The notes under the pieces were generated by a model. It saw nothing but the letters and a program-made list of their open reading frames with translations, made no database searches and had not been told where the DNA came from. Shown here in pieces: positions 23,926 through 63,476 of a stretch of DNA of 64,000 bases. Position 1 is the stretch's first letter. Each line of letters starts with the position of its first letter. The DNA lies in IMG/VR virus record IMGVR_UViG_3300008259_000020, positions 34,991-98,990 of that record; one strand, given 5' to 3'. The DNA comes from a virus. Taxonomy: Duplodnaviria; Heunggongvirae; Uroviricota; Caudoviricetes. The position numbers and the translations under genes were made by a program.

Positions 23926-24010
23926 TGGTGCCCACTGCCGGACTCGAACCGGCACTCCAGAGGAAGCAAATTTTAAGTCTGCCGCGGCTACCAATTTCAC
24001 CAAGCGGGCA
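23926..24010 (-). tRNA. tRNA-Leu (UAA), type II, CCA encoded
   Basis: Minus-strand cloverleaf: acceptor TGCCCGC/GTGGGCA, anticodon loop CTTAAAA, long variable arm, T-arm GCCGGTTCGAGTCCGGC, 3' CCA. Confidence 0.75.
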
Positions 24011-24012
24011 TT

Positions 24013-24408
24013 TTATTTTTTATACTTATCACCGGTAACTTGACCGGCACTCATTATAATAACTGGAATACGTTTAATATTCATTTCACGAAATGCAAAG
24101 TAACGATGATGTCCATCAATTACTTGATAAGTGTTTTCTCGTGGAATTCTTCTTACTAGTATTGGAGGTATCTTGCTGATATCTCGTTTTATCTGTTTTT
24201 TAATACTGTTTATATTTGCTCTAGCATCAACATCTTTAGTATCACCTTTACCGTCTCCTTCGAATCTAGATCGGATCTGATTCATAGGCATTACAACAAC
24301 TCGGTTGTATTCGTTTTTAAAATCAGTTACATTGGCACCGACAGTACTGTCACCAGTTTCAGGATCAACGTCTTTGGTTATTTTTGCTACTACTTCAAAT
24401 ATTTTCAT
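24013..24408 (-). CDS. ParB-like nuclease domain protein
   Basis: YQVIDGHHRYFAFRE is the ParB/Srx DGHHR box. Start set at MKIFEVV because the longer ORF would overlap tRNA-Leu(CAA). Confidence 0.55.
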   Translation of the reverse strand: MKIFEVVAKITKDVDPETGDSTVGANVTDFKNEYNRVVVMPMNQIRSRFEGDGKGDTKDVDARANINSIKKQIKRDISKIPPILVRRIPRENTYQVIDGHHRYFAFREMNIKRIPVIIMSAGQVTGDKYKK

Positions 24409-24423
24409 ATAGTATTTATTATT

Positions 24424-24507
24424 TGGTGCCCCAGGAGGGACTTGAACCCCCACGCCTTGCGGCAAAAGATTTTGAATCTTCCGTGGCTACCATTACACCA
24501 CTAGGGC
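24424..24507 (-). tRNA. tRNA-Leu (CAA), type II, CCA encoded
   Basis: Acceptor GCCCTAG/CTGGGGC, anticodon loop TTCAAAA, long variable arm, T-arm GGGGGTTCAAGTCCCTC. Confidence 0.7.
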
Positions 24508-24732
24508 AAAGTGTTGTTTAAAGGTGGCATCAGCACTTGTCTAGTACAAATTTATCGGGCCCAGCTGCGTTCAAACAACTATGTGTCTGTTTTTACACCT
24601 ACGTAAGGACTAGAATGTTTTTTATCCTTACTCCTTTAAACAATATAGTAATTAGCCTAGCAATAACCTATAGCATATCGCCGGGTCGCGGTCGACTCAC
24701 TTCCCTTACACCCCCAAGGTGCAGGCTAAAAT

Positions 24733-24808
24733 TGGTTGCGGTGGGCAGGACTCGAACCTGCGATTTACTGGTTATGAGCCAGTCGAGATGCCGCTTCTCT
24801 ACCCCGCA
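24733..24808 (-). tRNA. tRNA with CAU anticodon (Met, fMet or Ile2), imperfect acceptor/T junction
   Basis: D-arm GAGAAGCGGCATCTC, anticodon arm ACTGG-CTCATAA-CCAGT, T-arm GCAGGTTCGAGTCCTGC. The acceptor pairing has a mismatch or an extra C, so the boundaries are approximate. Confidence 0.5.
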
Positions 24809-24959
24809 ATATTCTGTTTACACATACACCCCAGCGCATTGCGTGTTTCAGTAAAGTTTGGGTGGCCGACCCTCATCTACGGGATGTATGTGTAAACAGA
24901 CTTAACTAGTTGAACAGTCTCGGAAATGGAGTAGTCGCCTACAGCCAAGTGGGTCGGAA

Positions 24960-26095
24960 CTCGAAAACTGTTCAACAAGTTAAGTTAAAAGATATGCCAA
25001 TCCTCTTATCACTTTCCACAAACGGTACCGGTTTTTGAACTAACATATCGTCAAACTTAATTTTTGCATAGGCTGAGATTATGCCTTGCTGTAGGAGCCT
25101 TTGACCATTACCGTTAGCCTTGCGAGCCACGTTCTGTCGTTATCCACAAGAGCCTTTTACGGTCATCTTGTATCTCCCAGTGGTGCCTTTTTTGGAGAGT
25201 GGCGTTTCTCTCGTCGCACGTTGCTACTCGTCCTTCTATCTTTCGTCTGCCTTGCGAGCAGTTCACAGTCGCTAAACCGTTACGCTATCTTTCCGAACAA
25301 CTACATCAGCCTTGCGAGCATCCGTAGACCACATTCTCTTGCGAGTGTGGCATTAACCACCTTTCACAACGTACCGGGACAGTCTTTCGCTTTTGTTTAT
25401 CAAAGAAGGGATTGAACCTTCGCCGATTCCGTTCAATGGAATTGCTCTACCGCTGAGCTATTTGCGAACCTACTTCGATGTGCTGTCCCAGTTGCTTCAC
25501 GTCTTGTTAGACGCAAAATACAACACACCGACTGTCTTTTGCCTTGCGGGCTACTCAACGTCTTTTTAAGTATCCGGGGCCTAACCCTTCCACTCTCAAG
25601 ATGCTAACTTGCCTTTGCTTGCGGGCTCAGACTAGTTAACTACCTGTTAACTTTCGGCATTCGTTAGTTTGGCTGAACAGTGTTTGGGCGCCAACCCTCT
25701 TATCGCTCACCGACCGGCTCTGCGACTATCCTTTCGGACACTATTCCTAACTTACTGCCTACCGCCTTTCTACGGACGGGAGTTGCTTTCGGTACCCGAG
25801 TCAACTCTAGTTCAGGCTTGCTTAGATGGACCATTGCTGGCGCAAGTTTATAGGAAACCTTGCTTTGGGTGCATTACTGCACTTACCCTTACGTGGACGC
25901 TAAGCCGCCCATCTTACTGTGTTTACAACGATATATTGTTTATCTTATCGTCAGTCGATAGACATAGTGGTTAGCATTGCCATTTCAACTTATTGTCAGT
26001 AGCGTGTGGCCCTGTTGTTTCGCTAGGAACCACCCTAGTTACTTGACAGTGCTACTACCCAATATACCTGTGTAAACACAGTGTTTACCAAATTA
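24960..26095. other. ~1.1-kb ORF-poor region inside the tRNA array carrying an iterated 11-13-mer (A)GCCTTGCG(A/G)GC(A)
   Basis: Copies at about 25111, 25251 and 25311 (identical AGCCTTGCGAGCA) and variants at 25341, 25533 and 25616. Only short plus-strand ORFs that look spurious. Confidence 0.4.
25400..25470 (-). ncRNA. degenerate tRNA-like element (D-, anticodon- and T-arms present, acceptor stem unpaired)
   Basis: TAGCTCAGCGGTAGAGC D-arm, ATTCC-ATTGAAC-GGAAT anticodon arm (UGA anticodon with a short variable arm) and GAAGGTTCAATCCCTTC T-arm, but the 5' and 3' ends pair at only 5 of 7 positions. Confidence 0.35.
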
Positions 26096-26200
26096 TCAAA
26101 GAGCGTGTAAACAACTTCTTGCTTACTTGTTTAATATAGTGCATGTTGCACCAAAGGTCAACCACTTTTTTATCTTTTTTTATTTTTTTTTGGAGCGGGT
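26096..26200. repeat. copy A of a ~100-bp dispersed repeat (TCAAAGAGCGTGTAA...TTTTTT...GGAGC)
   Basis: Shares an identical 15-mer TCAAAGAGCGTGTAA and a conserved downstream CTTGC-TTACT-TGTTTA-ATAG-G segment and T-runs with copy B at 28940-29037. Confidence 0.6.
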
Positions 26201-26266
26201 AACGGGATTCGAACCCGTGACCTGGTGCTTGGCAAGCAGCCGCTCTACCCCTGAGCTACACCCGCA
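26191..26266 (-). tRNA. tRNA-Gly (GCC), CCA encoded
   Basis: Acceptor GCGGGTG/TACCCGC, D-arm GCTCAGGGGTAGAGC, anticodon loop TTGCCAA (one C:C mismatch in the stem), T-arm ACGGGTTCGAATCCCGT. Confidence 0.65.
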
Positions 26267-26312
26267 TTTTAAGTTTGTAGTGATTATTAAATTCACTATG
26301 TAGACAATTTAA

Positions 26313-26388
26313 TGGTGCCGGTAGAGAGATTCGAACTCCCCACCTGATGATTACTAATCAACTGCTCTACCAAATGAGCTATACCGGC
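26313..26388 (-). tRNA. tRNA, anticodon ambiguous (loop TTAGTAA, formally AGU; self-complementary TGATTA/TAATCA)
   Basis: Acceptor GCCGGTA/TACCGGC, D-arm GCTCATTTGGTAGAGC, T-arm GGGAGTTCGAATCTCTC and CCA. The anticodon arm GTTGA-TTAGTAA-TCATC has a T:T mismatch. Confidence 0.55.
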
Positions 26389-27092
26389 AAATTATTATAA
26401 AATGGAATAACCACATTTTCAGCAAATGCTTCGTGTTGTTTTCCTGAAGGATGATCATCTCCCGGTGTAGGAAAGTCGTTGGGCATGTTATCTCTAGACC
26501 ATTCGTAGCAACCCTTAACTGGTACAAATCTTGTCCAGTCTACCATTTCTTTTAAATATTCTGTTTGCATAGTATTGACATTACTCTCATCAAATGTGCT
26601 TTGATTCATATTACTAAAAAAGTATTTTATATTATTTACTTTCAAGTAATTTTGCAATCTTAGAATATTTTCATAGGTTCTGATTAAATCAAATGTGTTG
26701 TTTGTATAAATCTTATAATGATTCGTTGAAAATCGACTAGGAAAACTTGCATTAATCAATACCCATTTGCCTGCAGGATCATTTTTTGGCCACGCTAGGT
26801 GACTGGCTTCGGATATGTTTGGCTTTGATAATTGATTTAATACAAATGAGTTTTCTACATAAAATGATGCTCTGTTGGCAGCACTCCACATAACCCCAAC
26901 TACTATATCTTTCGATTCTACATTGTTTTTGAATAAATCATTAACTTGATAAATTGCACGTCTAGCGATATGCTCATTTCCATTACTGCCCAATCCCATT
27001 GGGTAATGGGCATATTTCATTTTTTTTGCAAAATGAAAGGGCCAAGTATGATTGTCGTATGTAAATGAGCATCCGCTTGATACAAAGTGCAT
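26379..27092 (-). CDS. SGNH/GDSL-like hydrolase paralog 2
   Basis: SGCSFTY near the N-terminus and DDHPSG near the C-terminus. Homologous in layout to 19028-19753. Confidence 0.4.
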   Translation of the reverse strand: MHFVSSGCSFTYDNHTWPFHFAKKMKYAHYPMGLGSNGNEHIARRAIYQVNDLFKNNVESKDIVVGVMWSAANRASFYVENSFVLNQLSKPNISEASHLAWPKNDPAGKWVLINASFPSRFSTNHYKIYTNNTFDLIRTYENILRLQNYLKVNNIKYFFSNMNQSTFDESNVNTMQTEYLKEMVDWTRFVPVKGCYEWSRDNMPNDFPTPGDDHPSGKQHEAFAENVVIPFYNNLPV

Positions 27093-27183
27093 ATTTTATT
27101 TATCCCTCATATAGATCTTCGTAATCAATATCGTCATCGTCTTCTAACCAATCGGTATCGGACGAAGTTTGATCAACAGTTTA

Positions 27184-27260
27184 ATGGTCGGAGTGACAGG
27201 ATTTGAACCCACGACATCTTGGTCCCAAACCAAGCGCTCTACCAAACTGAGCTACACTCC
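27184..27260 (-). tRNA. tRNA-Pro (UGG)
   Basis: Acceptor CGGAGTG/CACTCCG, loop TTTGGGA, T-loop TTCAAAT, CCA. Confidence 0.75.
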
Positions 27261-27266
27261 GATATA

Positions 27267-27342
27267 CTGGCTGGGAAGGGTGGATTCGAACCACCAACCA
27301 ACGGATTCAAAGTCCGGTACTCTACCAATTGAGCTACTTCCC
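27267..27342 (-). tRNA. tRNA-Gln (UUG)
   Basis: Acceptor TGGGAAG/CTTCCCA, anticodon arm CCGGA-CTTTGAA-TCCGT, T-arm GGTGGTTCGAATCCACC, CCA. Confidence 0.8.
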
Positions 27343-27348
27343 AACATT

Positions 27349-27431
27349 TTGGTGCGGATAGAGGGACTCGAACCCCCACGCTTACGCACTAGTTCCTAAG
27401 ACTAGCGTGGCTACCATTACACCATATCCGC
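27349..27431 (-). tRNA. tRNA-Leu (UAG), type II
   Basis: Acceptor GCGGATA/TATCCGC, anticodon arm CTAGT-CTTAGGA-ACTAG, long variable arm, T-arm GGGGGTTCGAGTCCCTC, CCA. Confidence 0.8.
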
Positions 27432-27435
27432 ATTA

Positions 27436-27511
27436 ATGGTGCCCCCAGCAGGACTTGAACCCGCGACCCCCTGATTACAAATCAGGTGCTCTACCAGCTG
27501 AGCTATAAGGG
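27436..27511 (-). tRNA. tRNA-Thr (UGU)
   Basis: Acceptor GCCCTTA/TGGGGGC, anticodon arm CCTGA-TTTGTAA-TCAGG, T-arm GCGGGTTCAAGTCCTGC, CCA. Confidence 0.8.
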
Positions 27512-27521
27512 CAAAAACTTT

Positions 27522-27595
27522 TTGGAGCGGGTAACGAGATTCGAACTCGTGACAAGAGCTTGGAAGGCTCGCATGTTACCGCTACACCATACCCG
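27522..27595 (-). tRNA. tRNA-Gly (UCC)
   Basis: Acceptor GCGGGTA/TACCCGC, loop CTTCCAA, T-arm ACGAGTTCGAATCTCGT, CCA. Confidence 0.75.
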
Positions 27596-27602
27596 CATTA
27601 TA

Positions 27603-27678
27603 TTGGCGACCTGTACCGGGATCGAACCGGTGTTCTTCTGCGTGACAGGCAGACGTATTAACCACTTTACCAACAGGC
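27603..27678 (-). tRNA. tRNA-Asp (GUC)
   Basis: Perfect acceptor GGCCTGT/ACAGGTC, anticodon arm TCTGC-CTGTCAC-GCAGA, T-arm ACCGGTTCGATCCCGGT, CCA. Confidence 0.85.
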
Positions 27679-27869
27679 CAAAAGCATCACACACGGCTTA
27701 CAAGTTCCGTCCCACCACTATGTGAAAGGTGTGATGCAACACTGTATACTACGCCGTTCCAAACCAACATCTAGTGTTGATATGCTATTTAAAGCCACGC
27801 ACTGCTATTTCAAACAGTTACTCACGATGCTATGCTTACGCTACTAGGAGGTTCACAGTGTGTTTATTA

Positions 27870-27957
27870 TGGCGGAAGCGGTGAGATTCGAACTCACGGT
27901 ACCTTGCGGTACGCTGGTTTTCAAGACCAGAGCCATCAACCACTCGGCCACACTTCC
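27870..27957 (-). tRNA. tRNA-Ser (UGA), type II
   Basis: Acceptor GGAAGTG/CGCTTCC, anticodon arm CTGGT-CTTGAAA-ACCAG, long variable arm CGTACCGCAAGGTACC, T-arm GTGAGTTCGAATCTCAC, CCA. Confidence 0.85.
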
Positions 27958-27964
27958 GTATATT

Positions 27965-28040
27965 TGGCACAGGAGCAAGGACTTGAACCCTGGACATTCG
28001 GTTTTGGAGACCGACGCTCTACCAACTGAGCTACACCTGC
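27965..28040 (-). tRNA. tRNA-Trp (CCA)
   Basis: D-arm GCTCAGTTGGTAGAGC, anticodon arm TCGGT-CTCCAAA-ACCGA, T-arm CAGGGTTCAAGTCCTTG. The acceptor has one T:T mismatch. Confidence 0.7.
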
Positions 28041-28046
28041 ATATAT

Positions 28047-28121
28047 TGGTGCGGAATGAGAGGGTCGAACTCCCGACAACCTCGGTGTAAACGAGGGGCT
28101 CTACCACTGAGCTAATTCCGC
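28047..28121 (-). tRNA. tRNA-Val (UAC)
   Basis: Acceptor GCGGAAT/ATTCCGC, anticodon arm CCTCG-TTTACAC-CGAGG, T-arm GGGAGTTCGACCCTCTC, CCA. Confidence 0.85.
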
Positions 28122-28124
28122 ATA

Positions 28125-28340
28125 TCACTGTTTACCGCGTGACTAGAAAACTTGCCATCAAAGCGGGATTTGTTAATTGCTTGTTAATCTCTGGGCTTCC
28201 CCGTTAATCTTCAAGTTCTTAACTGGTCTCGGACTGCAACTTTGATACCGTGTTTACTGATTGTGCAGTACTGTTCAAGTTAAACAACTTACACAATGTT
28301 CAACGCGGCTTTTCTAGCCCCTCGGAAAACAGTGATTATA
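28125..28340. mobile_element. ~215-bp insertion-like element bounded by 12-bp terminal inverted repeats inside the tRNA array (MITE-like, or a structured RNA)
   Basis: ATATCACTGTTT at 28129-28140 pairs with AAACAGTGAT(T)ATAT at 28327-28341. Inner arms CTAGAAAAC and GCTTTTCTAG. No ORF, and it occupies the only long gap between tRNA-Val and tRNA-Ala. Confidence 0.35.
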
Positions 28341-28344
28341 TTAA

Positions 28345-28420
28345 TGGTGGACCCTGCCGGGATCGAACCGGCGACATTATGCTTGCAAAGCATACGCTCT
28401 CCCAACTGAGCTAAGAGCCC
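28345..28420 (-). tRNA. tRNA-Ala (UGC)
   Basis: Acceptor GGGCTCT/AGGGTCC, anticodon arm TATGC-TTTGCAA-GCATA, T-arm GCCGGTTCGATCCCGGC, CCA. Confidence 0.85.
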
Positions 28421-28436
28421 GTATATTGGCGGAGCG

Positions 28437-28524
28437 TCTGGGAGTCGAACCCAGTCTACCCTTGCGGGTAGTGCAGATTAGCAATCTGGTGCCTTACCGT
28501 CCGGCCCACGCTCCGTATATTTGG
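28437..28524 (-). tRNA. tRNA-Ser (GCU), type II
   Basis: Acceptor GGAGCGT/ACGCTCC, anticodon arm CAGAT-TGCTAAT-ATCTG, long variable arm, T-arm CTGGGTTCGACTCCCAG, CCA. Confidence 0.8.
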
Positions 28525-28531
28525 CTCCTCG

Positions 28532-28607
28532 TGCTGGGCTCGAACCAGCGACACTTTGATTAACAGTCAAATACTCTACCAACTGAGCTAACGAGGAACA
28601 CTAACTC
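28532..28607 (-). tRNA. tRNA-Asn (GUU)
   Basis: Acceptor TCCTCGT/ACGAGGA, anticodon arm TTTGA-CTGTTAA-TCAAA, T-arm GCTGGTTCGAGCCCAGC, CCA. Confidence 0.85.
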
Positions 28608-35790: not shown

Positions 35791-36213
35791 TTAATCATGG
35801 TCATAAGCCTTCAAAAAGTTTTCCATATACTTGCGAATGTTCTCTGCTCCTACGGGATTCATACTATGAACATGATATCCAAATCCCACAGGCAACCGTA
35901 GTTTGTTATCCATCACATGGTCACAAAACCATTTGGCAAAGGTGTAGCCAGTTTTCTCGCCTGTGTCTTTTTCGTAATGTTCGTCTGCCAAGTCATGGTC
36001 AAAACTGATCATAGTGGGCAAGCCATACTTTTCCACACACCAAACAGCATCATCCATGCTGCGGCAGATCACTACGTTTTTGTAAGGTCCGTAGTTGTAA
36101 CGCACATCACCGGGGAAGCGAATGTCATCTAAAAACAGTGTCCAGGTCATTTTACATTCCCATCCAAGCAGCACATTCATCCCAACGAACGTTGGTAGTG
36201 ATTGACTTTTCAA
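35791..36213 (-). CDS. hypothetical protein (140 aa)
   Basis: ORF immediately downstream of the RNA ligase. Confidence 0.35.
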   Translation of the reverse strand: MKSQSLPTFVGMNVLLGWECKMTWTLFLDDIRFPGDVRYNYGPYKNVVICRSMDDAVWCVEKYGLPTMISFDHDLADEHYEKDTGEKTGYTFAKWFCDHVMDNKLRLPVGFGYHVHSMNPVGAENIRKYMENFLKAYDHD

Positions 36214-37190
36214 TGTGATCCAATATCATAGCACGACCGTCACGATCACCAAAACGACCAAACACATACACAGCCGCAAACGGATCGCGGTTCTTGATCG
36301 TAGGCATCCACTCCTGTGCATAACGCTTGCGATCAAGTCCTGACGCAACAACAGTGTTCCAGTAACGATCATACTTTTCCACAGTGTTGTGCAAACGTTC
36401 TGCAAATCTGCGTTCAAAGTCACGCACACGATCTGCCTGCACTTTAGGCAACATAGGAACAACATCATCAACTTCTTCGTTGAGGATCAAGTTCACAATG
36501 TTACGATCAAACACAATACGATCCACAGTCTTGTGAATACGCACGTACCAGTCGTTCTTGATTTTGCACATGTGACCATCTGCAAAGCGGATGATGTCGC
36601 CTTCACGACCTTCTGCACCACGCTGACGAGCAATGTAGTCAACAAGATTGCCTGCTACACTACCATACTGCGTAACAGTGTTGAACGGACAAGAGATATC
36701 CATTGCATATTCGCCAGTCAAGTTGTCACGAGTACCAAGATACACAAGGTCTGCTGCCTCATAAGCCAGCACAATCTGGTTAAATGGGCTTACCCACTCA
36801 AACAGCGGAGTTAATCCAAGATCAACCATAGTGCGAAGCCATTCCTTCAATCTGCGGTCCTGAGCAGCAAGCCACGCCTCGGCATCCATAGCAACCGACG
36901 TCACTCCCATTTTGGTAGCCAGTCGCAGGTGCCCATCAACCAAGATCGGACGTAAGAGCACCATCAGGACCAAAGATAAGACCACGGCATTCACGACGAA
37001 TCGCACCGCCCAAGTCGTCTGGGCCAGTCATGTCAAAGGTATCGGCCATAGCCACCACATAGTTGACCACAGTATAGCCTTCACGTTCGGCTACGACAAA
37101 TTCGTCACGGCCTTCTACGTGCGGCAGCACATCACTGATGTGACGGATCAGAGGAAAACGGTAGTTCATGATTTTATCCTTGTGTATCAC
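36152..37190 (-). pseudogene. rnlA: RNA ligase 1 (T4 RnlA/gp63 family), apparently interrupted by a frameshift near 36936-37006
   Basis: The N-terminal frame (37190-36936) gives ...YTVVNYVVAMADTFDMTGPDDLGGAIRRECRGLIFGPDG, which matches T4 Rnl1 YRIFSYNYASY...ECRGIMFEMDG. The second frame (from 37006) gives VDGHLRLATKMGVTS...FEWVSPFNQIVLAYEAADLVYLGTRDNLTGEY...DGHMCKIKNDWYVRIH, which matches T4 ...VDYILTKEDGSL...FEFVAPTNRIVLAY...ENETGEY...DGSHFKIKSDWYVSLH. The two frames overlap by about 70 nt. Motif I reads TKMG, not the canonical KxDG. Confidence 0.6.
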
Positions 37191-37225
37191 CTACCCTAGT
37201 GTTATAGCACAAGGATAGGCAGTTG

Positions 37226-37744
37226 TCAATCACTGATTCTGTTGCCATACATGTCGTAGCAGCGAACAGCATCGAATCCTTCGTCAACAGTAGGGCGAAC
37301 AAAACTATCCATCATTGATTCAATTACATGATCAGGAATAGTTTTGCCTGGACGGCTAGCCATACGGTGCTGCCAATCTTCCCACTGGCTATCACCCGCT
37401 GGCAAGAGGATGCACTCGCACTCAACACGATAGCCAGCGTTACGCATACGATTAATGATCTTACGACGCTTGCCAACACCAAGGTTGGTCTGATCCCAGA
37501 TGACATCCTTACGAAGAGTAACTATCGAGTTCAACTTCCGTTCGTTGAACTCCGTCGCAGCCTTAATGTTTAAAGAAAACGCCTCGTTATAAGTGATGCC
37601 GTTGTCTTCAGCAACCGTATCGATATACATATCGGTGCTGTAGATCCAAGTGTCTTCAGAGATCATTCTCTGAATGAGAGTGCTCTTACCGGTAGCAGGC
37701 AACCCAACCATCACAGTACAAGTAGGCATGTTTTCTCCAATCAA
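37226..37744 (-). CDS. polynucleotide 5'-kinase (T4 Pnk N-terminal kinase-domain homolog, stand-alone)
   Basis: P-loop VMVGLPATGKSTL and DQTNLGVGKRRKIINRMRNAGYRV align with the T4 PseT kinase domain (GCPGSGKST ... SDTNLNPERR...). Confidence 0.65.
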   Translation of the reverse strand: MIGENMPTCTVMVGLPATGKSTLIQRMISEDTWIYSTDMYIDTVAEDNGITYNEAFSLNIKAATEFNERKLNSIVTLRKDVIWDQTNLGVGKRRKIINRMRNAGYRVECECILLPAGDSQWEDWQHRMASRPGKTIPDHVIESMMDSFVRPTVDEGFDAVRCYDMYGNRISD

Positions 37745-37950
37745 TACTTAAAGTTTCCACTCGCTTCGTTATCTTTGAAACCAGTCATATATGCTTCGAT
37801 TTCATTAGGAGTCATACGATCCTCAGGAATTAATTCGCTGGATCCGGTGCCACCAACGTAGTAGTGAGGAACACATGGACGACGGTAGTAACTATCAGCA
37901 CCACCGCGATCGTAGGGTCCACCATGACGTCTATCGTTAGATTGAGACAT
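37741..37950 (-). CDS. small Gly/Tyr/Arg-rich protein (69 aa)
   Basis: ORF between the kinase and phosphatase genes. Confidence 0.35.
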   Translation of the reverse strand: MSQSNDRRHGGPYDRGGADSYYRRPCVPHYYVGGTGSSELIPEDRMTPNEIEAYMTGFKDNEASGNFKY

Positions 37951-37976
37951 TAGGTTATTCCTTTTCTATTTATGTA

Positions 37977-38207
37977 TCAGTGACGAACGAGATGAACGCG
38001 GCCAAGGAGCGTAGCAAGAGCGTATTCGATCGCCTCCATCGCCTGCGCCTTGGTAATGTTATTCGAGTCGTACTGTGACTCTGCGAGTTTAATCAGCTGA
38101 GCGAGTTCTTCATTAGTCATACCGCAGATTGCAGTTTTGACTTCTTCGAGGCTATTAAAGGTAGTCATTGTCGTGTTCCTTTTGTTTCCTACAGATATAG
38201 AATACAC
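37977..38207 (-). CDS. small hypothetical protein (76 aa)
   Basis: ORF. Confidence 0.35.
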   Translation of the reverse strand: MYSISVGNKRNTTMTTFNSLEEVKTAICGMTNEELAQLIKLAESQYDSNNITKAQAMEAIEYALATLLGRVHLVRH

Positions 38208-38239
38208 TGATTCTAAACGAATGTAAATAGAAAAGTTGT

Positions 38240-38701
38240 TTAGAAGTCCTCATCACCTTGGTATACGTTGAAAACAAAGATACCTTCTTCACGCCACATA
38301 CGAACAACTCGCGGACGATCGTCAAACACCATGTCAGGCTTACGGCCGTAGTCAGCAATGATCTCGTCAAGGATTTCACGCTTGACAATATCGTCACCAC
38401 GGAAGTCGTCTGCCTTACGCATGTACAGTTTGGCAGTGTAGTTCCAAAAGCGGTTGTCCTGCAACCACTTCATAGTAGCATCACGACTACGCTCGTTGCG
38501 TCCGCTTGCAAAGATGATTTCGTTACCAGCAGCCTTCAGCGAGTGAAATGCTTCTGCAACATATGGATTCACAGCATCGTTTGGAATACCAGCATCAAAT
38601 GCCTTCCAGTTCTTTGGCTTGCTACGAACGTAGTCCAGCCGGTGTTCGATGTTAGCCAGTGTGCCGTCGATATCAAAAACAACTAGCATTTTATCCCTCA
38701 T
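38240..38701 (-). CDS. polynucleotide 3'-phosphatase (HAD family; T4 Pnk C-terminal domain homolog, stand-alone)
   Basis: VVFDIDGTLA (DxDGT nucleophile motif) and FDDRPRVVRMWREEGIFVFNVYQGD align with T4 PseT VIFDVDGTLA ... [24 protein letters not shown]. Confidence 0.7.
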   Translation of the reverse strand: MRDKMLVVFDIDGTLANIEHRLDYVRSKPKNWKAFDAGIPNDAVNPYVAEAFHSLKAAGNEIIFASGRNERSRDATMKWLQDNRFWNYTAKLYMRKADDFRGDDIVKREILDEIIADYGRKPDMVFDDRPRVVRMWREEGIFVFNVYQGDEDF

Positions 38702-40551: not shown

Positions 40552-40627
40552 TGGAGCTCCCGGAAGGATTCGAACCCTCGACCACCACGTTCGAAGCGTG
40601 GCACTCTGACCGCTGAGTTACGGAAGC
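40552..40627 (-). tRNA. tRNA-Arg (UCG)
   Basis: Acceptor GCTTCCG/CGGGAGC, anticodon arm CCACG-CTTCGAA-CGTGG, T-arm GAGGGTTCGAATCCTTC, CCA. Confidence 0.8.
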
Positions 40628-40639
40628 GTAGTATTTATT

Positions 40640-40715
40640 TGGTGCCCCCGGCAGGAGTCGAACCCACAACCTAGGGAGTAGAAATCCCTTGCTCTTCCAG
40701 TTGAGCTACGAAGGC
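40640..40715 (-). tRNA. tRNA-Arg (UCU)
   Basis: Acceptor GCCTTCG/CGGGGGC, anticodon arm AGGGA-TTTCTAC-TCCCT, T-loop TTCGACT, CCA. Confidence 0.8.
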
Positions 40716-40736
40716 TAAATTTCTGACAACTGACAA

Positions 40737-40806
40737 AGTGCAAAGGGACTCGAACCCTTGTCTCCGACTCCACGCCGGCGTCCTATCCTCTAGACGATAC
40801 ACACGA
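40737..40806 (-). ncRNA. degenerate tRNA-like element (Glu-type D-arm, good T-arm, no acceptor pairing, no CCA)
   Basis: TCGTCTAGAGGATAGGACG D-arm (compare E. coli tRNA-Glu), T-arm AAGGGTTCGAGTCCCTT, no foldable anticodon stem and no 3' complement. Confidence 0.3.
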
Positions 40807-41081
40807 TCATTGCAGCACTTTTCTATATCTCGACAACGACATCGAAGTTACTGCAACAAAAGGTCAGTTGCCACGGTGGTTGCCGCCACCTATTCTTTAT
40901 CTCTTATTTATTTCTTGTGTATACTATACATGATCTTTTCACGCATGTCAACGCATATACAGCACCAGCAGCTTATATGTTTAGTTTTCTTGCCACGCAT
41001 GTTGACGTTTGCCGAGGCGGCGCGGTGGGGCGGGCCGATGATCTGCTGGAACAGTTTATCTCGAGAAACACTGAACTCAGC

Positions 41082-41600
41082 CTATTCTAATTCGTCTTCG
41101 AATGGGTATCTTCTCACTGCTAGCAATTTTCTAACAGGATATGCACTAAAGTTAACACTGTTATCTTGATTTCCACCAAGCACCAAATAGTATTCTTGAC
41201 CATTGTGATAGGTTGAAGTTACAAAGAATCCAACATGACCTTTCCAATTGGCATTGCCACGCTTAAACACAACAACATCACCTGATTCTGGTTCGTCTAC
41301 TTCTACGCCCCAATCAAGAAAACTTCTTGCCAGTAGAGGATGTTCTGCATATTCATCAGACCCAGGTAATCCAGTTTCTGCAAGCACTGCATTTACAAAT
41401 GCAGCACACCATTCAGTGGCAACTGGATCAACACCGATAAAATCTTTTATTTCTGCTCTATGACTCTTTTCACTCCACCCTAGTTTTTCTGTTGCAGCAA
41501 CCAATGGTTCTGGCGGTGTCGGTGAAGTAGTAAACAATTGAATTTTTGCACAAGCAGATACTGATAGTAACAGTACTGTTAGTAACATAGCCCTCATCAT
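41082..41600 (-). CDS. secreted CHAP/NlpC-P60-type cysteine peptidase (candidate endolysin or cell-wall hydrolase)
   Basis: Signal peptide MMRAMLLTVLLLSVSACA. Catalytic-type Cys in TEWCAAFVNAVL and His in GHVGFF. A TATAAATA late-promoter-like motif sits just upstream. Confidence 0.5.
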   Translation of the reverse strand: MMRAMLLTVLLLSVSACAKIQLFTTSPTPPEPLVAATEKLGWSEKSHRAEIKDFIGVDPVATEWCAAFVNAVLAETGLPGSDEYAEHPLLARSFLDWGVEVDEPESGDVVVFKRGNANWKGHVGFFVTSTYHNGQEYYLVLGGNQDNSVNFSAYPVRKLLAVRRYPFEDELE

Positions 41601-41648
41601 AAAAATATTTATAGAATAGGTCTAGATAGAAATAGTACAGTTTAACTT

Positions 41649-41724
41649 TGGCACTCCCGGCAGGACTCGAACCTGCAACAATCACCTTCGTAGGGTGGCG
41701 CTCTTCCAGTTGAGCTACGGAAGT
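41649..41724 (-). tRNA. tRNA-Arg (ACG)
   Basis: Acceptor ACTTCCG/CGGGAGT, loop CTACGAA, T-arm GCAGGTTCGAGTCCTGC, CCA. Confidence 0.75.
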
Positions 41725-41730
41725 ATCGTT

Positions 41731-41805
41731 TGGTACCGTGTATAGGATTTGAACCTATTCCGACGCAGTCACAGTGCGGTATGCTACCCTTACACCAAGC
41801 ACGGC
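41731..41805 (-). tRNA. tRNA-His (GUG)
   Basis: Loop CTGTGAC, T-arm ATAGGTTCAAATCCTAT, CCA. The acceptor has one terminal mismatch. Confidence 0.65.
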
Positions 41806-41812
41806 ATTATTC

Positions 41813-41887
41813 TGGTTGCCCCTACTAGATTTGAACTAGTGACCTATCCCTTATCAGGGGATTGCTCTACCACTGAGCTAAGAGGCA
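41813..41887 (-). tRNA. tRNA-Ile (GAU)
   Basis: Acceptor TGCCTCT/AGGGGCA, anticodon arm ATCCC-CTGATAA-GGGAT, T-arm ACTAGTTCAAATCTAGT, CCA. Confidence 0.8.
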
Positions 41888-41988
41888 ATATTCATTGTTT
41901 AGAAGATACACTGACCAATACCATTTCTGGTCCGATAGGTTTATTTTATGTGGCGGCCTAAATGCCACTCAGTGTATCATCAAACCAA

Positions 41989-42064
41989 TGGTGAACCGGG
42001 TGGGATTCGAACCCACGTACTCCGATTAAAAGTCGGGTGCTAAAACCACCTCAGCTACCGGTCC
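41989..42064 (-). tRNA. tRNA-Lys (UUU)
   Basis: Acceptor GGACCGG/CCGGTTC, loop CTTTTAA, T-arm GTGGGTTCGAATCCCAC, CCA. Confidence 0.75.
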
Positions 42065-42123
42065 ACGTTTCGTTTGTCGCTTTCTTCTTTGTTACGTTTT
42101 CGTTTCATTTTTGTTCCTTGAAT

Positions 42124-42201
42124 TGGTGTACCGGGTGGGAGTTGAACCCACGACCTTCGGATTAAGAGTCCGCGGCTCTAACCTGGCTGAGCTACCGGTG
42201 C
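42124..42201 (-). tRNA. tRNA-Lys (CUU)
   Basis: Anticodon arm GCGGA-CTCTTAA-TCCGA, T-arm GTGGGTTCAACTCCCAC, CCA, long D-loop. Confidence 0.75.
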
Positions 42202-42220
42202 ATTAATAGTTGTATGTTTG

Positions 42221-42664
42221 TTAGTTACACCACGACTGCTTTTTGTCGCCGTAGTATTCTCTAGCATAACCTTGTTCAATAAGCATCTGTGTTAGGCTCT
42301 TACCGTCGATAAGAACATCACCTAGCACTCTGCCGCCGAACTTGTCCCACTCATAAAATACAATTTGAGTAGTCTTGGCTTTTGCAACTAAATCTTTTGT
42401 AAATTTACTTGCAGCATCACCCATGTCGCCTTCTTTTTTACATTCTGCTCTGCCACCTTTTTCAGGTGTATCTACGCCCCATACACGAAGTGATAGTTTC
42501 TTCGGAAGTGGATCTAGCAAGAACTTTGCTTCAAATTCAACTGTATCACCATCTACTACACGTAGAATTTTTAAGTCGTGTGCTACACCAGTTGGCTTTT
42601 TTACTTCAGCAAATGCAGTGGATGCAGCAACAATCAGTGCTACAGTTAAAAGTATTTTTTTCAT
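42221..42664 (-). CDS. secreted staphylococcal-nuclease (SNase/thermonuclease) homolog
   Basis: Signal peptide MKKILLTVALIVAASTAFA. ILRVVDGDTVEF and RVWGVDTPEK match the SNase Ca-site and active-site boxes. Confidence 0.7.
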   Translation of the reverse strand: MKKILLTVALIVAASTAFAEVKKPTGVAHDLKILRVVDGDTVEFEAKFLLDPLPKKLSLRVWGVDTPEKGGRAECKKEGDMGDAASKFTKDLVAKAKTTQIVFYEWDKFGGRVLGDVLIDGKSLTQMLIEQGYAREYYGDKKQSWCN

Positions 42665-42709
42665 TATGTTCTCCTAAATACTAGAATATTTATAACAAAA
42701 AAACAATTA

Positions 42710-42785
<76 letters not shown>

Positions 42786-42791
42786 ATATTT

Positions 42792-42876
42792 TGGTGGGAG
42801 AGGAGGGAATCGAACCCGTCCGTGCGTTGCCGCGATGGAGTTACAGTCCACTGCCTCACCTTGAGGCGTCTCTCCC
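42792..42876 (-). tRNA. tRNA-Tyr (GUA), type II (bacterial-type long variable arm)
   Basis: Acceptor GGGAGAG/CTCTCCC, loop CTGTAAC, long variable arm, T-loop TTCGATT, CCA. Confidence 0.8.
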
Positions 42877-42882
42877 TTATTT

Positions 42883-42959
42883 TGGTAGGACATACGGGTT
42901 TCGAACCCGTTTCTCCGCCTTGAAAGGGCGGCGACCTTCGCCAAGAAGTCCAATGTCCC
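42883..42959 (-). tRNA. tRNA-Glu (UUC)
   Basis: Acceptor GGGACAT/ATGTCCT, anticodon arm CCGCC-CTTTCAA-GGCGG, T-arm ACGGGTTCGAAACCCGT, CCA. Confidence 0.8.
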
Positions 42960-42965
42960 ATAGTT

Positions 42966-43040
42966 TGGTGATGTAGGCTGGATTCGAACCAGCAACCTAC
43001 GGCGTATGAGACCGTTGCACTACCGTTGTGCTACCACATC
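42966..43040 (-). tRNA. tRNA with CAU anticodon (Met or Ile2/lysidine)
   Basis: Acceptor GATGTGG/CTACATC, anticodon arm ACGGT-CTCATAC-GCCGT, T-arm GCTGGTTCGAATCCAGC, CCA. Confidence 0.8.
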
Positions 43041-43046
43041 ATTGTT

Positions 43047-43130
43047 TGGAGGTCGGTATGTGAATCGAACACATTACTTTGCAGTGCTATGGAGTTGCAG
43101 TCCATCCCCTTACCATCCGGGCCACCGACC
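43047..43130 (-). tRNA. tRNA-Cys (GCA)-like with an atypical 14-nt extra (variable) region
   Basis: Perfect acceptor GGTCGGT/ACCGACC, anticodon arm ATGGA-CTGCAAC-TCCAT, then AGCACTGCAAAGTA before T-arm ATGTGTTCGATTCACAT, CCA. A long variable arm is not expected for Cys. Confidence 0.55.
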
Positions 43131-43849: not shown

Positions 43850-44977
43850 TTATACTACCTTTACTTCTAGAGGCGGAAAGCCGTTAAATGCTATAGTGCT
43901 GTATGTGCTTGTGTAAGCACCGCAACTGTTAATTACTAACACATCTCCACTCTCAATGTCAATTGGTAATTGTACTTTGTTTCTTTCATACATTACATCG
44001 GCACTATCACAGGTTGGACCAGCAAGTATACAAGGACCTGTTGGAGAATTTTCTTTGCCTAGCACAGTAAATTGATACTTGATTGCTTCGCCTTCTGTTT
44101 CTGCAAGACCACTAAATCTACCTACGTTTAGGTATACCCAACGAACCACATCCATTGATGACTTCTTACTTGCCAACAATACTTCTGAGGCAATGCAACC
44201 TGCGCTGCCTACTAAGCCGCGACCAGGTTCTACCATAATGTAGTTGGCTCCTGGAAACTGCTTACGAACACGATCCATTAGTTTTTTGCCGTATTCTTCA
44301 GGAGGTGTAATTTCTACACCGTAGTAGGCAGGAAAGCCTCCGCCGATGTTTACCAGTGTAAGTTCGTAACCGCACTGAGAGATTTCGTCCCAAAGATTAC
44401 CCATCAACTCTAGTGTGTCATACCACATCTCAGGATGTTTGGTTTGCGAACCAATGTGCCAACTGATACCAACTGGTTCAAGTCCTAGTTCTTTTGCATA
44501 GCCCATAAGGCCTAATGCCATAGCAGGATCACAACCGAACTTGCGTGACAGTGGCCATTCTGCTTCGGTTTGCCCAATCAGCACACGAATAAACACACGT
44601 GAGTTGGGTGCATGACGTGCAATTTTTTCCAGTTCTTCTTCAGCATCTGCAGAAAACAATGTAATATCGTTTCTGTATGCGTATTCGATATCTTGCCAAC
44701 GTTTTACAGTATTACCAAAACTAATGTGTTCTGGTTCTGCACCGGCAGCAAGACACATTTCAATCTCACCCATACTAGCAGCATCAAATCTACAACCTAG
44801 TTCGACAAGACGTTGTAGAATAGCAGGATGCGGATTGCTCTTTACTGCATAATGCACATGAGCATCTGGCATACCTGCTTTTAGGTTTAGATAATTTTCT
44901 TCTACAAGATCAATGTCAAGAATCAGTGTCGGACGTTCGAATGTATTGTTGCGAATGTACTGATAAATTGCGTCCAC
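43850..44977 (-). CDS. PLP-dependent Orn/Lys/Arg/DAP decarboxylase (alanine-racemase fold, group IV)
   Basis: HYAVKSNPHPAILQRLVELGCRFDAASMGEI (PLP-lysine box), EPGR in VEPGRGLVGSAG and GPTCDSADV (substrate-Cys box). Confidence 0.7.
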   Translation of the reverse strand: MDAIYQYIRNNTFERPTLILDIDLVEENYLNLKAGMPDAHVHYAVKSNPHPAILQRLVELGCRFDAASMGEIEMCLAAGAEPEHISFGNTVKRWQDIEYAYRNDITLFSADAEEELEKIARHAPNSRVFIRVLIGQTEAEWPLSRKFGCDPAMALGLMGYAKELGLEPVGISWHIGSQTKHPEMWYDTLELMGNLWDEISQCGYELTLVNIGGGFPAYYGVEITPPEEYGKKLMDRVRKQFPGANYIMVEPGRGLVGSAGCIASEVLLASKKSSMDVVRWVYLNVGRFSGLAETEGEAIKYQFTVLGKENSPTGPCILAGPTCDSADVMYERNKVQLPIDIESGDVLVINSCGAYTSTYSTIAFNGFPPLEVKVV

Positions 44978-49200: not shown

Positions 49201-49684
49201 TGCTCTCGCCTTTTAGAGTCTCTAACATACGGTATTTGTCCAGTTGACAATGATACTCGTCTGCCGCAGATTTTAGTTTAGGATATTTGGTTTCTAGATC
49301 AAAGTCTCTGTTGATTACAACTTTTAGACTCTTGCTTATTTCGTCAAGAGATTTTTGATACTGAAGAATAGGATCTAGTTTTTCACGCTCAATGTCATCG
49401 ATCTTAACATAGTGTTGGCTTTGACTAGGATGATAACTATCCTTAGGAACAACGCCGGCATCAATCCAGTTGGCTCGGGCCTTTTCTATGCCTTCGTGAT
49501 CGACGTGTATATAGGGTCTGTCGTCACTAAACTTGCGTTCGCCACAGTTGCATTTGTAAAACCGTATCTGCCAATGCTTGGTTTTTTTGGTATCAGTATA
49601 AGTTGTATGATACTTGTCGTTGACTGCTACTAGTTCCCAATCATGCTCGTGCCGCGGAGCAAAAAGTCGTGCAATAAAGTTCAT
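49190..49684 (-). CDS. hypothetical protein (164 aa)
   Basis: ORF with a CNCGERKF zinc-ribbon-like pair. Confidence 0.35.
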   Translation of the reverse strand: MNFIARLFAPRHEHDWELVAVNDKYHTTYTDTKKTKHWQIRFYKCNCGERKFSDDRPYIHVDHEGIEKARANWIDAGVVPKDSYHPSQSQHYVKIDDIEREKLDPILQYQKSLDEISKSLKVVINRDFDLETKYPKLKSAADEYHCQLDKYRMLETLKGESNEA

Positions 49685-49935
49685 CGTTTACCCTGATAAC
49701 GTAGATCAAAAATTTTATCTCTTACACGATTATTATACCAATTACGGTCTTGCTTGTCAAGCAGTGTAAGTAGATATTCAAGATCTTCGTCGCTTAACGC
49801 CACATCAACTGCGGATTCTGCTAACACAGTATAACCTCGGTTTTTTAATTCTTCCACTATTTCGTTGTCGTCGAACTCATCGAGATCTACGTCAACGTCT
49901 ACATATGTTTCAATTGTTTTAACAGCCATTTTCAA
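49681..49935 (-). CDS. small acidic protein (84 aa)
   Basis: ORF. Confidence 0.35.
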   Translation of the reverse strand: MKMAVKTIETYVDVDVDLDEFDDNEIVEELKNRGYTVLAESAVDVALSDEDLEYLLTLLDKQDRNWYNNRVRDKIFDLRYQGKR

Positions 49936-50554
49936 TTACCTTCTTTTTGATGGTTTTGTATAATCCTGGGTTTACTTTTAATGCGTGTGGCATTAGTTCA
50001 TGTCTAATATAGTTTCTTGTGTACTTGATATCCGCATTGCTAGGATCTTCAACATACGGTACCGTGTGCATATTAGACCACAAGGCAATATCACGTTTCA
50101 TATTTAATCTAAACGGACGGATAACGTTCTTTCTACGATACGGTACAATTTTACCAGTACCGTGCAGCGAACTAAAGATCCAAGTTTCCACGCAGTCATC
50201 CAAGTGATGTCCTGTAATCACAGGTGCGTCTGTAAATAGGTCCAAGAACTCGTAGCGTTTTTCTCGCCAAAATTCTTCATGACTCATATCTTTTGGCTTG
50301 TCTTCACGAATCTTACCGCCGATAAATTTGATATCGTTTTTAATACAGTAGTCATCAACAAAGTCTAGAGTGTACATAGAATTGCTGGTTCTATGATCAA
50401 AATGTAATACAGTTACATCATGATTGTTTTGTAGAAAATTTAAAATTGCCATACTATCAATGCCGCCGGAGCAGGCAAGATATACTTTGCGGGGGAGTTT
50501 GCCTTGGATCTTAATCATATTTTTTATTATAAGGCATAGACCGCAATTGGACAA
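49919..50554 (-). CDS. tilS: tRNA(Ile)-lysidine synthetase (TilS) catalytic-domain homolog (PP-loop ATPase)
   Basis: PP-loop LACSGGIDSMAIL, HHLDDCVETWIF (compare TilS HHxDDQAET), RPFRLNMKRDI and EDPSNADIKYTRNYIRHELMP (compare TilS D.SN.d....RN.IR..llP). Confidence 0.65.
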   Translation of the reverse strand: MSNCGLCLIIKNMIKIQGKLPRKVYLACSGGIDSMAILNFLQNNHDVTVLHFDHRTSNSMYTLDFVDDYCIKNDIKFIGGKIREDKPKDMSHEEFWREKRYEFLDLFTDAPVITGHHLDDCVETWIFSSLHGTGKIVPYRRKNVIRPFRLNMKRDIALWSNMHTVPYVEDPSNADIKYTRNYIRHELMPHALKVNPGLYKTIKKKVIENGC

Positions 50555-63464: not shown

Positions 63465-63476
63465 TTTTTATTGCCC

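Follow-up and report, generated by a model that had tools for sequence, protein, structure and literature searches.

A TilS-like gene reduced to its catalytic domain in an uncultured jumbo-phage lineage, and the linkage of its relatives to CAU-anticodon tRNAs

The stretch of DNA analyzed here (the window; 64,000 nucleotides of the viral record IMGVR_UViG_3300008259_000020) encodes a TilS-like PP-loop ATPase, a candidate lysidine synthetase that would act on tRNA carrying a CAU anticodon. The window is moderately AT-rich (GC 37–45%), and its genes lie nearly all on the minus strand. It contains 31 tRNA genes (30 called by ARAGORN, one by Rfam) in two arrays, at 23.9–28.6 kb and 40.5–43.1 kb, which together span all 20 amino acids and include two genes with CAU anticodons, termed CAU1 and CAU2 below. 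Gene content, and the presence of relatives on metagenomic contigs of 250–374 kb, indicate that the window is part of an uncultured jumbo-phage lineage; a megablast search of 50,697 phage records with 5 kb around the TilS-like gene as query returned nothing. Coordinates are collected in Table 1, and loci encoding relatives of the TilS-like protein are designated by L and a number.

The mechanical open reading frame (ORF) call for the TilS-like gene, 49919 to 50554 on the minus strand, starts at a TTG codon and predicts 211 residues. In all 26 homologues aligned, the protein begins MIK, corresponding to the ATG at window position 50518 and a product of 199 residues, and this ATG is probably the true start. 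The TTG at 50554 falls within a promoter-like sequence, TTGTCC-17-TATAAT, which stops 7 nt short of the ATG. No Shine–Dalgarno sequence is visible before the ATG at 50518, so the transcript may lack a leader or carry only a very short one.

Profile, sequence and fold comparisons place the protein with TilS, as the initial annotation had supposed from its signature blocks. The TilS-specific profile that this annotation had proposed as a check, TIGR02432 (NCBIfam lysidine_TilS_N), is matched at 114.4 bits against a curated cutoff of 93.6 (E = 5.7e-33; profile positions 2–189 of 189), and Pfam PF01171 at 108.9 bits. Other matches fall far lower, with TtcA, LarE and argininosuccinate synthase at no more than 24 bits and PAPS-reductase and QueC-like profiles at E values of at least 0.002. 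A phmmer search against all PDB sequences returned only TilS (1wy5, 3a2k, 1ni5), with alignments running through every TilS block. When the AlphaFold model (pLDDT 78) was compared by Foldseek, ranks 1–5 were all TilS, followed by TtuA (∼1e-9) and LarE, with MnmA and QueC at 1e-5 or worse. These data argue against assignment to the QueC, MnmA or PAPS-reductase families.

The predicted translation carries the motifs SGGIDS, HHLDDCVETW and SNADIKYTRNYIR. Both blocks specific to TilS, HHxDDxxET and (D/E)xSNx6RNxIR, are present, and HHLDDCVETW and EDPSNADIKYTRNYIR align with the same blocks in the TilS structures of A. aeolicus, G. kaustophilus and E. coli. The CxxC or Fe-S cysteine pattern of TtcA and TtuA is absent from the window protein. 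It does have a cysteine in DDC-VETW that is invariant in, and specific to, the phage family; at this position the residue is Gln in the enzymes of E. coli and G. kaustophilus and Leu in that of A. aeolicus. Metagenomes yielded more than 2,500 homologues, many of them already labeled TilS by JGI. The best 120 of these are almost all ∼195–220 residues long, and some lie on contigs of up to 374 kb. Although pairwise identity of homologues to the window protein ranges from 46 to 86%, the motif columns are invariant or nearly so across the family, and the PP-loop residues S17, G18, G19, D21 and S22 (SGGxDS) are invariant both in a set of 27 homologues and in one of 42. In the set of 27 diverse phage homologues, 36 columns are invariant, covering the PP-loop, HxLDDxxETW, RPF and D..N..RN..R. 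As these columns extend over all of the catalytic motifs, the alignment indicates that the family is under selection as an enzyme.

In contrast to bacterial TilS, the phage protein is truncated after its catalytic domain. It ends 16 residues past the NPG motif and has no C-terminal domain 1 (CTD1), the alignment to 1wy5 stopping at residue 227 of 317. Nor is there a C-terminal domain 2 (CTD2): the model for full-length TilS, NF007942, is matched at 52.3 bits against a cutoff of 606, and only over its N-terminal 202 profile positions. This architecture is general. All 27 diverse family members are ∼185–205 residues long and end soon after a conserved NPGxxKxIxKK tail, homologues terminate ∼10–25 residues past the NPG motif, and each of the ∼150 homologues inspected from phages and metagenomes is catalytic-domain-only. 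A short acidic ORF downstream of the gene (49681–49935) has no significant family match, and the ORFs at this place vary in size among relatives. The uniform loss of tRNA-binding domains appears to be undescribed in the searchable literature.

This reduced form, together with the score against the full-length model, weighs against an active enzyme. CTD1 contacts the anticodon stem and elbow in type I and type II enzymes, and CTD2, found in type I only, reads the acceptor stem (PMC11947777). All TilS enzymes are said to have at least CTD1, deletion of CTD2 or mutation of CTD1 strongly cuts activity, and the C-terminal domains contribute strongly both to catalysis and to rejection of tRNA-Met (PMC11947777). 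Activity of the bare N-terminal domain, with no C-terminal tRNA-binding domain, is therefore putative. With neither CTD1 nor CTD2, an active enzyme would have to recognize its substrate either by the anticodon arm alone or with the help of some unknown partner.

Evidence for the nature of the substrate comes from relatives. We sampled 60 loci encoding TilS relatives and scored tRNA genes within 300 nt of TilS. Eight loci, representing about five independent lineages, have such a gene, and in all eight the anticodon is CAU and the tRNA lies 16–71 nt away on the same strand. By comparison, CAU tRNAs make up 34 of the 360 tRNAs in these loci. In the L048–L051 array the order is Arg(UCU)-Leu(UAA)-Leu(UAA)-CAU-CAU-TilS, among decoders of rare A-ending codons. 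The TilS-adjacent tRNAs of L048–L051, L049, L055, L057, L060 and L061 all have G3:C70 or A3:U70, pairs that indicate tRNA-Ile (Silva et al. 2006, PMC1635315). That of L055 is ∼81% identical to the ileX tRNA-Ile2 of E. coli, confirmed as an annotated E. coli tRNA-Ile(CAU).

To classify CAU tRNAs, we built profiles from 56 fMet, 19 Met and 26 Ile2 bacterial tRNAs, and these assigned 100 of the 101 correctly in leave-one-out trials. One caveat here is that the reference set is biased: the pattern scan of genome contigs behind it admitted only sequences with A38 and the T arm GGTTCRANTCC, and position 3:70 served to divide Met from Ile2. On these profiles, Ile2 exceeds Met for the TilS-adjacent tRNAs of L055 (82 versus 50 bits), L057 (60 versus 30) and L060 (66 versus 30). 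L069, whose TilS is 65% identical to the window protein, has a clearly Ile2-like tRNA in a different array (G3:C70, C29:G41; Ile2 62 versus Met 19). The Pseudomonas jumbo phage MIJ3 has three CAU tRNAs ∼7–10 kb upstream of its TilS, all annotated 'tRNA-Met'; one is initiator-like, one Met-like (C3:G70) and one Ile2-like (G3:C70; Ile2 62.5 versus Met 40.2 bits), and the anticodon stem that the latter two have in common is nearly the same as in E. coli tRNA-Ile2. For the family, a pairing of TilS with CAU tRNA is strongly supported by these gene arrangements, and the tight physical linkage of TilS to Ile2-type tRNA genes appears not to have been described in the searchable literature. As a separate observation, CAU tRNAs adjacent to or near TilS in L048 (9828–9904), L049 (5666–5742), L052 (9849–9926) and L061 (4858–4935) have a G1.U72 wobble and A73; among the bacterial tRNAs sampled, G1.U72 occurs in 11 of 19 elongator Met and 3 of 26 Ile2.

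The chemistry of TilS is well established: C34 is adenylated, and lysine attacks the activated base. If the window protein works in the same way, its PP-loop domain would bind ATP and adenylate C2 of cytidine-34 on a CAU tRNA, and the epsilon-amine of lysine would displace AMP, converting CAU to LAU. The lysidinylated tRNA would thereby pass from MetRS and AUG identity to IleRS and AUA identity. Demand for such a tRNA is evident. In the 56 minus-strand ORFs, AUA makes up 21.5% of Ile codons and occurs at 13.7 per 1000 codons, and no tRNA-Ile(UAU) is found in the window or in 65 related loci. The initial annotation had expected AUA to be frequent, which these values bear out; the corresponding figure for E. 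coli is 4.9 per 1000 codons (PMC12514573). With AUA used about three times as often as in E. coli and no other decoder for it, the enzyme would be expected to mature new tRNA-Ile2-type transcripts during infection. On this evidence we consider lysidine formation on a CAU tRNA, in support of AUA decoding, to be the likely function of the protein. The gene for the presumed substrate adjoins the enzyme gene in relatives; for the window, the candidates would be CAU2, host tRNA-Ile2 or a tRNA from outside the window. A phage TilS would be useful only if unmodified substrate is made during infection, which favors a phage-encoded substrate, either CAU2 or a gene outside the 64 kb.

The initial annotation had proposed that one of the two CAU tRNAs is plausibly tRNA-Ile2. 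Both genes are indeed present, and CAU1 can be set aside, as its features are those of an initiator-type tRNA. Its D stem (GAGA/UCUC) provides A11:U24 and G12:C23, the 'complete discriminators' of fMet (Silva et al. 2006, PMC1635315), and its profile score is highest for fMet (40.7 versus 31.4 and 16.2). The best match in E. coli is metY, upstream of rimP, and each genome has four matching places, the number expected of initiator genes. Two initiator traits, 'no Watson-Crick 1:72' and 'three G:C at 29-31:39-41', are not seen in CAU1. It has U1-A72, a state shared by 2 of the 56 bacterial initiators sampled, and an anticodon stem of U29:A41 plus two G:C pairs, with A:U or U:A at 29:41 in 12 of the 56. 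The 3' acceptor strand of CAU1 is 8 nt long and leaves a bulged A, which is kept in relatives while other stems covary.

CAU1 is one of a class of initiator-like tRNAs in which an 8-nt 3' strand, CCA[A/G/C]CGCA, lies opposite a 7-nt 5' strand, UGCGGGG, producing a conserved bulged or mismatched A. Other members are at L048 13421–13497, L049 9118–9194 and L050 9683–9759. The D arm is nearly identical across these phages whereas the anticodon and T stems covary, and hence the tRNA appears to be functional. L049 has a canonical-looking initiator in addition to the one with the 8-nt strand.

CAU2 is therefore the sole candidate substrate within the window; both clusters were scanned permissively with Rfam and the entire window was searched for the pattern YTCATA, which revealed no third CAU tRNA and, as the only additional gene, tRNA-Tyr(GUA). 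Its identity is hard to assign. The relevant positions are U3:A70, G4:C69, U5:A68, A12:U23, G29:C41, U31.G39 and C38. We compared these with the elements used by E. coli TilS and IleRS (C4:G69, C5:G68, U12:A23, C29:G41 and A38) and with the Ile2 traits of Silva et al. (2006, PMC1635315), namely G3/A3 or C70/U70 and frequent C4:G69 and C5:G68. Several lines of evidence count against CAU2 as tRNA-Ile2. The comparison with Ile2 identity elements that the initial annotation had suggested comes out negative for C4:G69, C5:G68 and the anticodon-loop A38, and U12:A23, C29:G41 and a Watson-Crick 31:39 pair are missing as well. The 31:39 pair is Watson-Crick in 26 of 26 Ile2 but only 6 of 19 Met tRNAs from bacteria; U31.G39, like C38 and G4:C69, is Met-type, and nucleotides 32 and 38 are used by TmcAL to tell tRNA-Met from tRNA-Ile2 (PMC12514573). 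The bacterial profiles give Met 46.3 versus Ile2 20.4 (52 versus 39 without the acceptor stem), scores whose weight is limited by the biased reference; U31.G39, C38 and G4:C69 drive the gap. Were CAU2 an Ile2, the phage set would lack elongator Met and nothing else, whereas with CAU2 as Met the 31 tRNAs supply all 20 amino acids plus the initiator.

These features are what one would expect if the chemistry were as proposed but no substrate lay in the window, CAU2 being an elongator tRNA-Met, CAU1 the initiator, and the target either host tRNA-Ile2 or a phage tRNA encoded outside the 64 kb. The L069 tRNA fits this alternative too, since it indicates that Ile2-type genes exist elsewhere in the clade. 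We regard the alternative as possible, if on the unlikely side. The host has its own, essential TilS to modify its tRNA-Ile2, so a phage copy would pay only if new unmodified substrate is made, and neither cluster nor the rest of the window supplies a further CAU tRNA. CAU2 and its family also have U3:A70 in place of the C3:G70 usual in tRNA-Met and tRNA-fMet (PMC1635315). Syntenic orthologues of CAU2 score higher as Ile2 than as Met (63.6 versus 51.0 bits in L002, 37 versus 24 in L012, 26 versus 20 in L015), and the nearest tRNA outside the CAU2 family is the TilS-adjacent tRNA of L055, identical at 41 of 60 structural positions. Finally, the tRNA-Ile of T4, whose identity is known experimentally, could not be placed by the profiles (10.3 versus 10.4), which suggests that they are reliable on bacterial but not on phage tRNAs. 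The picture thus comes close to one that the initial annotation had named as damaging to its proposal, with both CAU tRNAs Met-like, but it is tempered by the weakness of the profiles on phage tRNAs and by orthologues that lean toward Ile2. Whether CAU2 is the TilS substrate we judge to be evenly poised.

Other approaches to CAU2 gave little. In blastn searches, it had chance-level matches only to E. coli genomes (E = 7), and its best full-length match among phages was a 'tRNA-Met' of Aeromonas phage Aeh1 (76.5%), which is an annotation label only. Co-divergence of TilS (57%) and CAU2 (70%) between the window and its close relative L195 (IMGVR_UViG_3300042564_002819, 330 kb) was rejected as evidence: tRNA-Phe (63%), tRNA-Ile (64.5%) and several neighboring proteins (29–57%) are as divergent, and no specific signal remains. 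An argument for CAU2 by elimination was likewise dropped. The contig holding L048 and L197, with 41 tRNAs, has Ile2-like tRNAs next to TilS but no CAU2-type tRNA in its second cluster, so elimination does not decide the identity of CAU2. As to other unusual CAU tRNAs, those of L027 (12825–12896), L034 (8411–8482), L040, L042, L043 and L047 (17440–17511) are 72 nt long and non-canonical, without a normal 8–9 connector and with a very short D arm; they have U31.G39 and occupy the Cys-adjacent array position of CAU2.

A further reading would make CAU2 both things at once. In phages such as this one, with a single non-initiator CAU tRNA of mixed Met/Ile2 character, a distinct 'type III' TilS that picks its substrate by the anticodon arm alone could act on that one tRNA, which would serve both identities; unmodified, this tRNA would be charged by MetRS and read AUG, lysidinylated it would be charged by IleRS and read AUA, and the phage enzyme would set the ratio. 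We think this improbable.

Still less probable, in our view, is that the PP-loop domain has been re-purposed, either to attach another amine to C34, such as the product of the neighboring pyridoxal phosphate (PLP)-dependent decarboxylase, or to act on another RNA. Both tRNA-recognition domains are lost, the cysteine of DDC-VETW is peculiar to the family, and archaea use agmatine for an analogous modification (PMC11947777). An Orn/DAP/Arg-type decarboxylase gene does lie between TilS and tRNA cluster 2 in the window and in L002. However, it is not consistently next to TilS, its position differing in L195, and the window protein has kept all of the TilS-specific motifs, scores above the equivalog cutoff for the TilS N-domain, lacks the cysteines of TtcA and TtuA, and belongs to a family whose tight linkage is specifically with CAU tRNAs. 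We find it scarcely credible that the gene, captured as a bacterial tilS, is now decaying or non-enzymatic and plays no part in decoding: the architecture is truncated relative to bacterial TilS, and phage TilS is known from sequence alone (the MIJ3 authors call its function unknown; PMC6892783), but the family is large and uniform in length, its catalytic residues are invariant at 46–86% identity to the window protein, synteny with IF-1 is kept and adjacency to CAU tRNAs recurs.

A phage-borne TilS is not in itself new. The window gene belongs to a known phage family, reported for MIJ3 and PA5oct with function unknown (Imam et al. 2019, PMC6892783), and the translation gene sets of jumbo phages are likewise already established. 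MIJ3 gp263 and PA5oct gp37, each annotated 'putative lysidine synthase TilS' (PMC6892783), are 46–48% identical to the window protein over its whole length and are also catalytic-domain-only proteins of ∼200 residues, encoded by jumbo phages with their own tRNA arrays that include CAU tRNAs. The MIJ3 paper makes no mention of the missing C-terminal domains or of a link to CAU tRNA (PMC6892783). These Pseudomonas phages belong to a different lineage, without DNA similarity to the window. MIJ3 has 12 tRNAs and no IF-1 match, compared to 31 tRNAs, IF-1, GOLLD RNA and RNA-repair genes in the window lineage, and it has a clearly Ile2-like tRNA whereas the window has none that is clear. The TilS copy of RsoM2USA is longer, at 349 residues.

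Among characterized enzymes, the type II TilS of A. aeolicus (1wy5/2e21/2e89) is the best match in both sequence (E = 5.7e-16) and fold (E = 6e-13; 27–28% identity). Its PP-loop and all of its N-domain motifs align with the window protein, but it is 317 residues long with CTD1 and the window protein ends at its residue ∼227. In type I enzymes (E. coli, 1ni5; G. kaustophilus, 3a2k), CTD2 is present in addition, as the reader of the acceptor stem; the window protein lacks this domain too. T4 encodes a CAU tRNA, as does the window; its tRNA-Ile(CAU) supplies AUA decoding to an AT-rich phage and relies on host TilS. T4 has no such enzyme of its own, whereas the window encodes a TilS-like one. The T4 tRNA has C4:G69, C5:G68 and C29:G41, none of which is found in CAU2. 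Huge phages with translation genes are said to have been described by Al-Shayeb et al. in 2020. Like the window, Lak and other megaphages (>200 kb) have large tRNA arrays, initiation factors, Pth2 and RNA repair (reviewed in PMC7824862).

The window's other translation and RNA genes were partly foreseen in the initial annotation. The predicted IF-1 is, as claimed there, a full-length homologue: it matches TIGR00008 at 100.5 bits (cutoff 61.15; profile positions 1–68 of 69) and PF01176 at 74.8 bits, and it is 61% identical to an E. coli IF-1 sequence. Phage IF-1 was also described as rare, and we found it in 35 of the 50,697 deposited phage records, mostly Lak and other huge phages, which makes it rare but known. 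In all relatives examined (L003–L005, L007, L069, L070 and L072), the MazE/AbrB-like ORF and IF-1 form a pair that lies 3–6 kb upstream of TilS. In the same collection, there was no well-supported phage record with both this TilS family and IF-1; the only overlaps are a multi-contig assembly, 'Acinetobacter phage MD-2021a', and short Listeria, Staphylococcus and Enterococcus 'phage' contigs, with the two genes on separate contigs. The MazE–IF-1...TilS block is a conserved trait of the window's uncultured lineage. Upstream of MazE–IF-1, L002, L070, L071 and L072 have genes for ribosomal protein S21, HSP20, ClpS, heme oxygenase and a ferredoxin-dependent bilin reductase, none of which occurs between IF-1 and the end of the window.

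The claim of a PTH2 peptidyl-tRNA hydrolase holds at the level of fold; the sequence score, 22.9 bits over residues 5–51 only, is just below the PF01981 gathering score of 23.0, although some homologues of the protein carry PF01981. Its AlphaFold model (pLDDT 83.6) has archaeal Pth2 at Foldseek ranks 1–6 (1xty, 1rlk, and two chains each of 2zv3 and 3erj; probability 1.00, TM 0.54–0.69). The fold thus supports a Pth2-fold protein, a putative hydrolase, and Pth2 in jumbo phages has been reviewed before (PMC7824862). The RNA repair genes form a T4-type tRNA repair set 2–4 kb from tRNA cluster 2, with kinase and phosphatase as two ORFs instead of one bifunctional Pnkp. RNA ligase and PNK are a classic countermeasure to anticodon nucleases. 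By association, this set lends some support to the idea of tRNA-targeting defenses raised in the initial annotation; 'takeover' of translation and independence from such defenses are inference only. The PLP-dependent decarboxylase is kept in L002 and L194–L196. It was rejected as a supplier of lysine, the co-substrate of TilS: its best model, lysA (DAP decarboxylase, which would make lysine), is matched at 175.7 bits where the cutoff is 297.9, too low to assign a substrate.

Table 1. Positions of the predicted genes and other features in the window
Feature	Coordinates	Strand	Basis or remark
TilS-like lysidine synthetase gene (putative), catalytic N-terminal (PP-loop) domain only, 199 aa	49919..50518	−	Profiles, PDB, Foldseek
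Sigma-70-like promoter match, TTGTCC-17-TATAAT	50526..50554	−	10/12 consensus positions; consensus match alone
tRNA, CAU anticodon (CAU2)	42966..43040	−	ARAGORN and Rfam; conserved Cys-CAU-Glu-Tyr array
tRNA, CAU anticodon (CAU1), initiator-type	24733..24808	−	A11:U24, G12:C23; ARAGORN and Rfam
tRNA cluster 1	23926..28597	−	18 genes, including CAU1, and GOLLD RNA
tRNA cluster 2	40552..43130	−	13 genes
tRNA-Ile(GAU)	41813..41887	−	C4:G69, U12:A23, C29:G41, A37, A38, A73
tRNA-Tyr(GUA), long variable arm	42796–42876	−	Rfam only (missed by ARAGORN)
IF-1 (infA) homologue, 71 aa	54788..55003	−	TIGR00008, PF01176
MazE/AbrB (SpoVT)-like ORF, 60 aa	54996..55178	−	Overlaps IF-1 start
Divergent PTH2-fold protein (putative peptidyl-tRNA hydrolase 2), 124 aa	39223..39597	−	PF01981 borderline; fold
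RNA repair set	36152..38701	−	Ligase and split PNK
Rnl1-like RNA ligase	36152–37006	−	Profile match
PNK-type kinase	37226–37744	−	Profile match
PNK-type HAD phosphatase (HAD_PNKP)	38240–38701	−	Profile match
PLP-dependent Orn/DAP/Arg decarboxylase	43850–44977	−	720 nt upstream of tRNA cluster 2

Some members of the arrays deserve comment. The tRNA-Tyr(GUA) gene, which completes the 20-amino-acid set, scores 33.8 bits with the Rfam tRNA model and 36 bits with the tRNA-Sec model, the latter under its cutoff. The window's tRNA-Ile(GAU) has the IleRS identity set of E. coli, reportedly worked out by Nureki et al. in 1994; CAU2 does not have that set. A full-length GOLLD RNA (25070–25531, minus strand; RF02032, 191.7 bits against a gathering score of 150) lies within tRNA cluster 1 and embeds a tRNA-like element that ARAGORN calls Ser(UGA) at 25395–25468. 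GOLLD with an embedded tRNA is also found at L023 12237–12701, L048 14633–15097 and L050 10855–11317. Comparison with L195 reveals strong mosaicism: tRNA identities are 100% for Glu, 98.7% for His and 97.4% for Lys but 63% for Phe, 64.5% for Ile and 70% for the CAU tRNA, and neighboring proteins are 29 to 87% identical. Single tRNA genes appear to have been exchanged inside otherwise conserved arrays. Beyond the translation genes, the window has host-like envelope and signaling genes (56909–58951 and 61678–63986, minus strand), including a CHASE2-sensor adenylate/guanylate cyclase, FecR-like and CsgG-like proteins and a secreted Thr-rich protein of 669 residues; relative L072 also has CsgF and CsgG.

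CTD1 and CTD2 have been seen as devices that separate tRNA-Ile2 from tRNA-Met, and discrimination by type II enzymes is still unexplained (PMC11947777). If the bare N-terminal domain of the phage family is active, it would be a natural minimal TilS, and enzymes of ∼200 residues with cognate tRNAs 16–71 nt away in relatives would be ready enzyme–substrate pairs for the study of anticodon-arm specificity. Calls of 'tRNA-Met' in phage arrays conceal three identities and should be read with this in mind. If the proposed role is correct, jumbo phages would import not only tRNAs but also a modification step for a codon that the host reads poorly.

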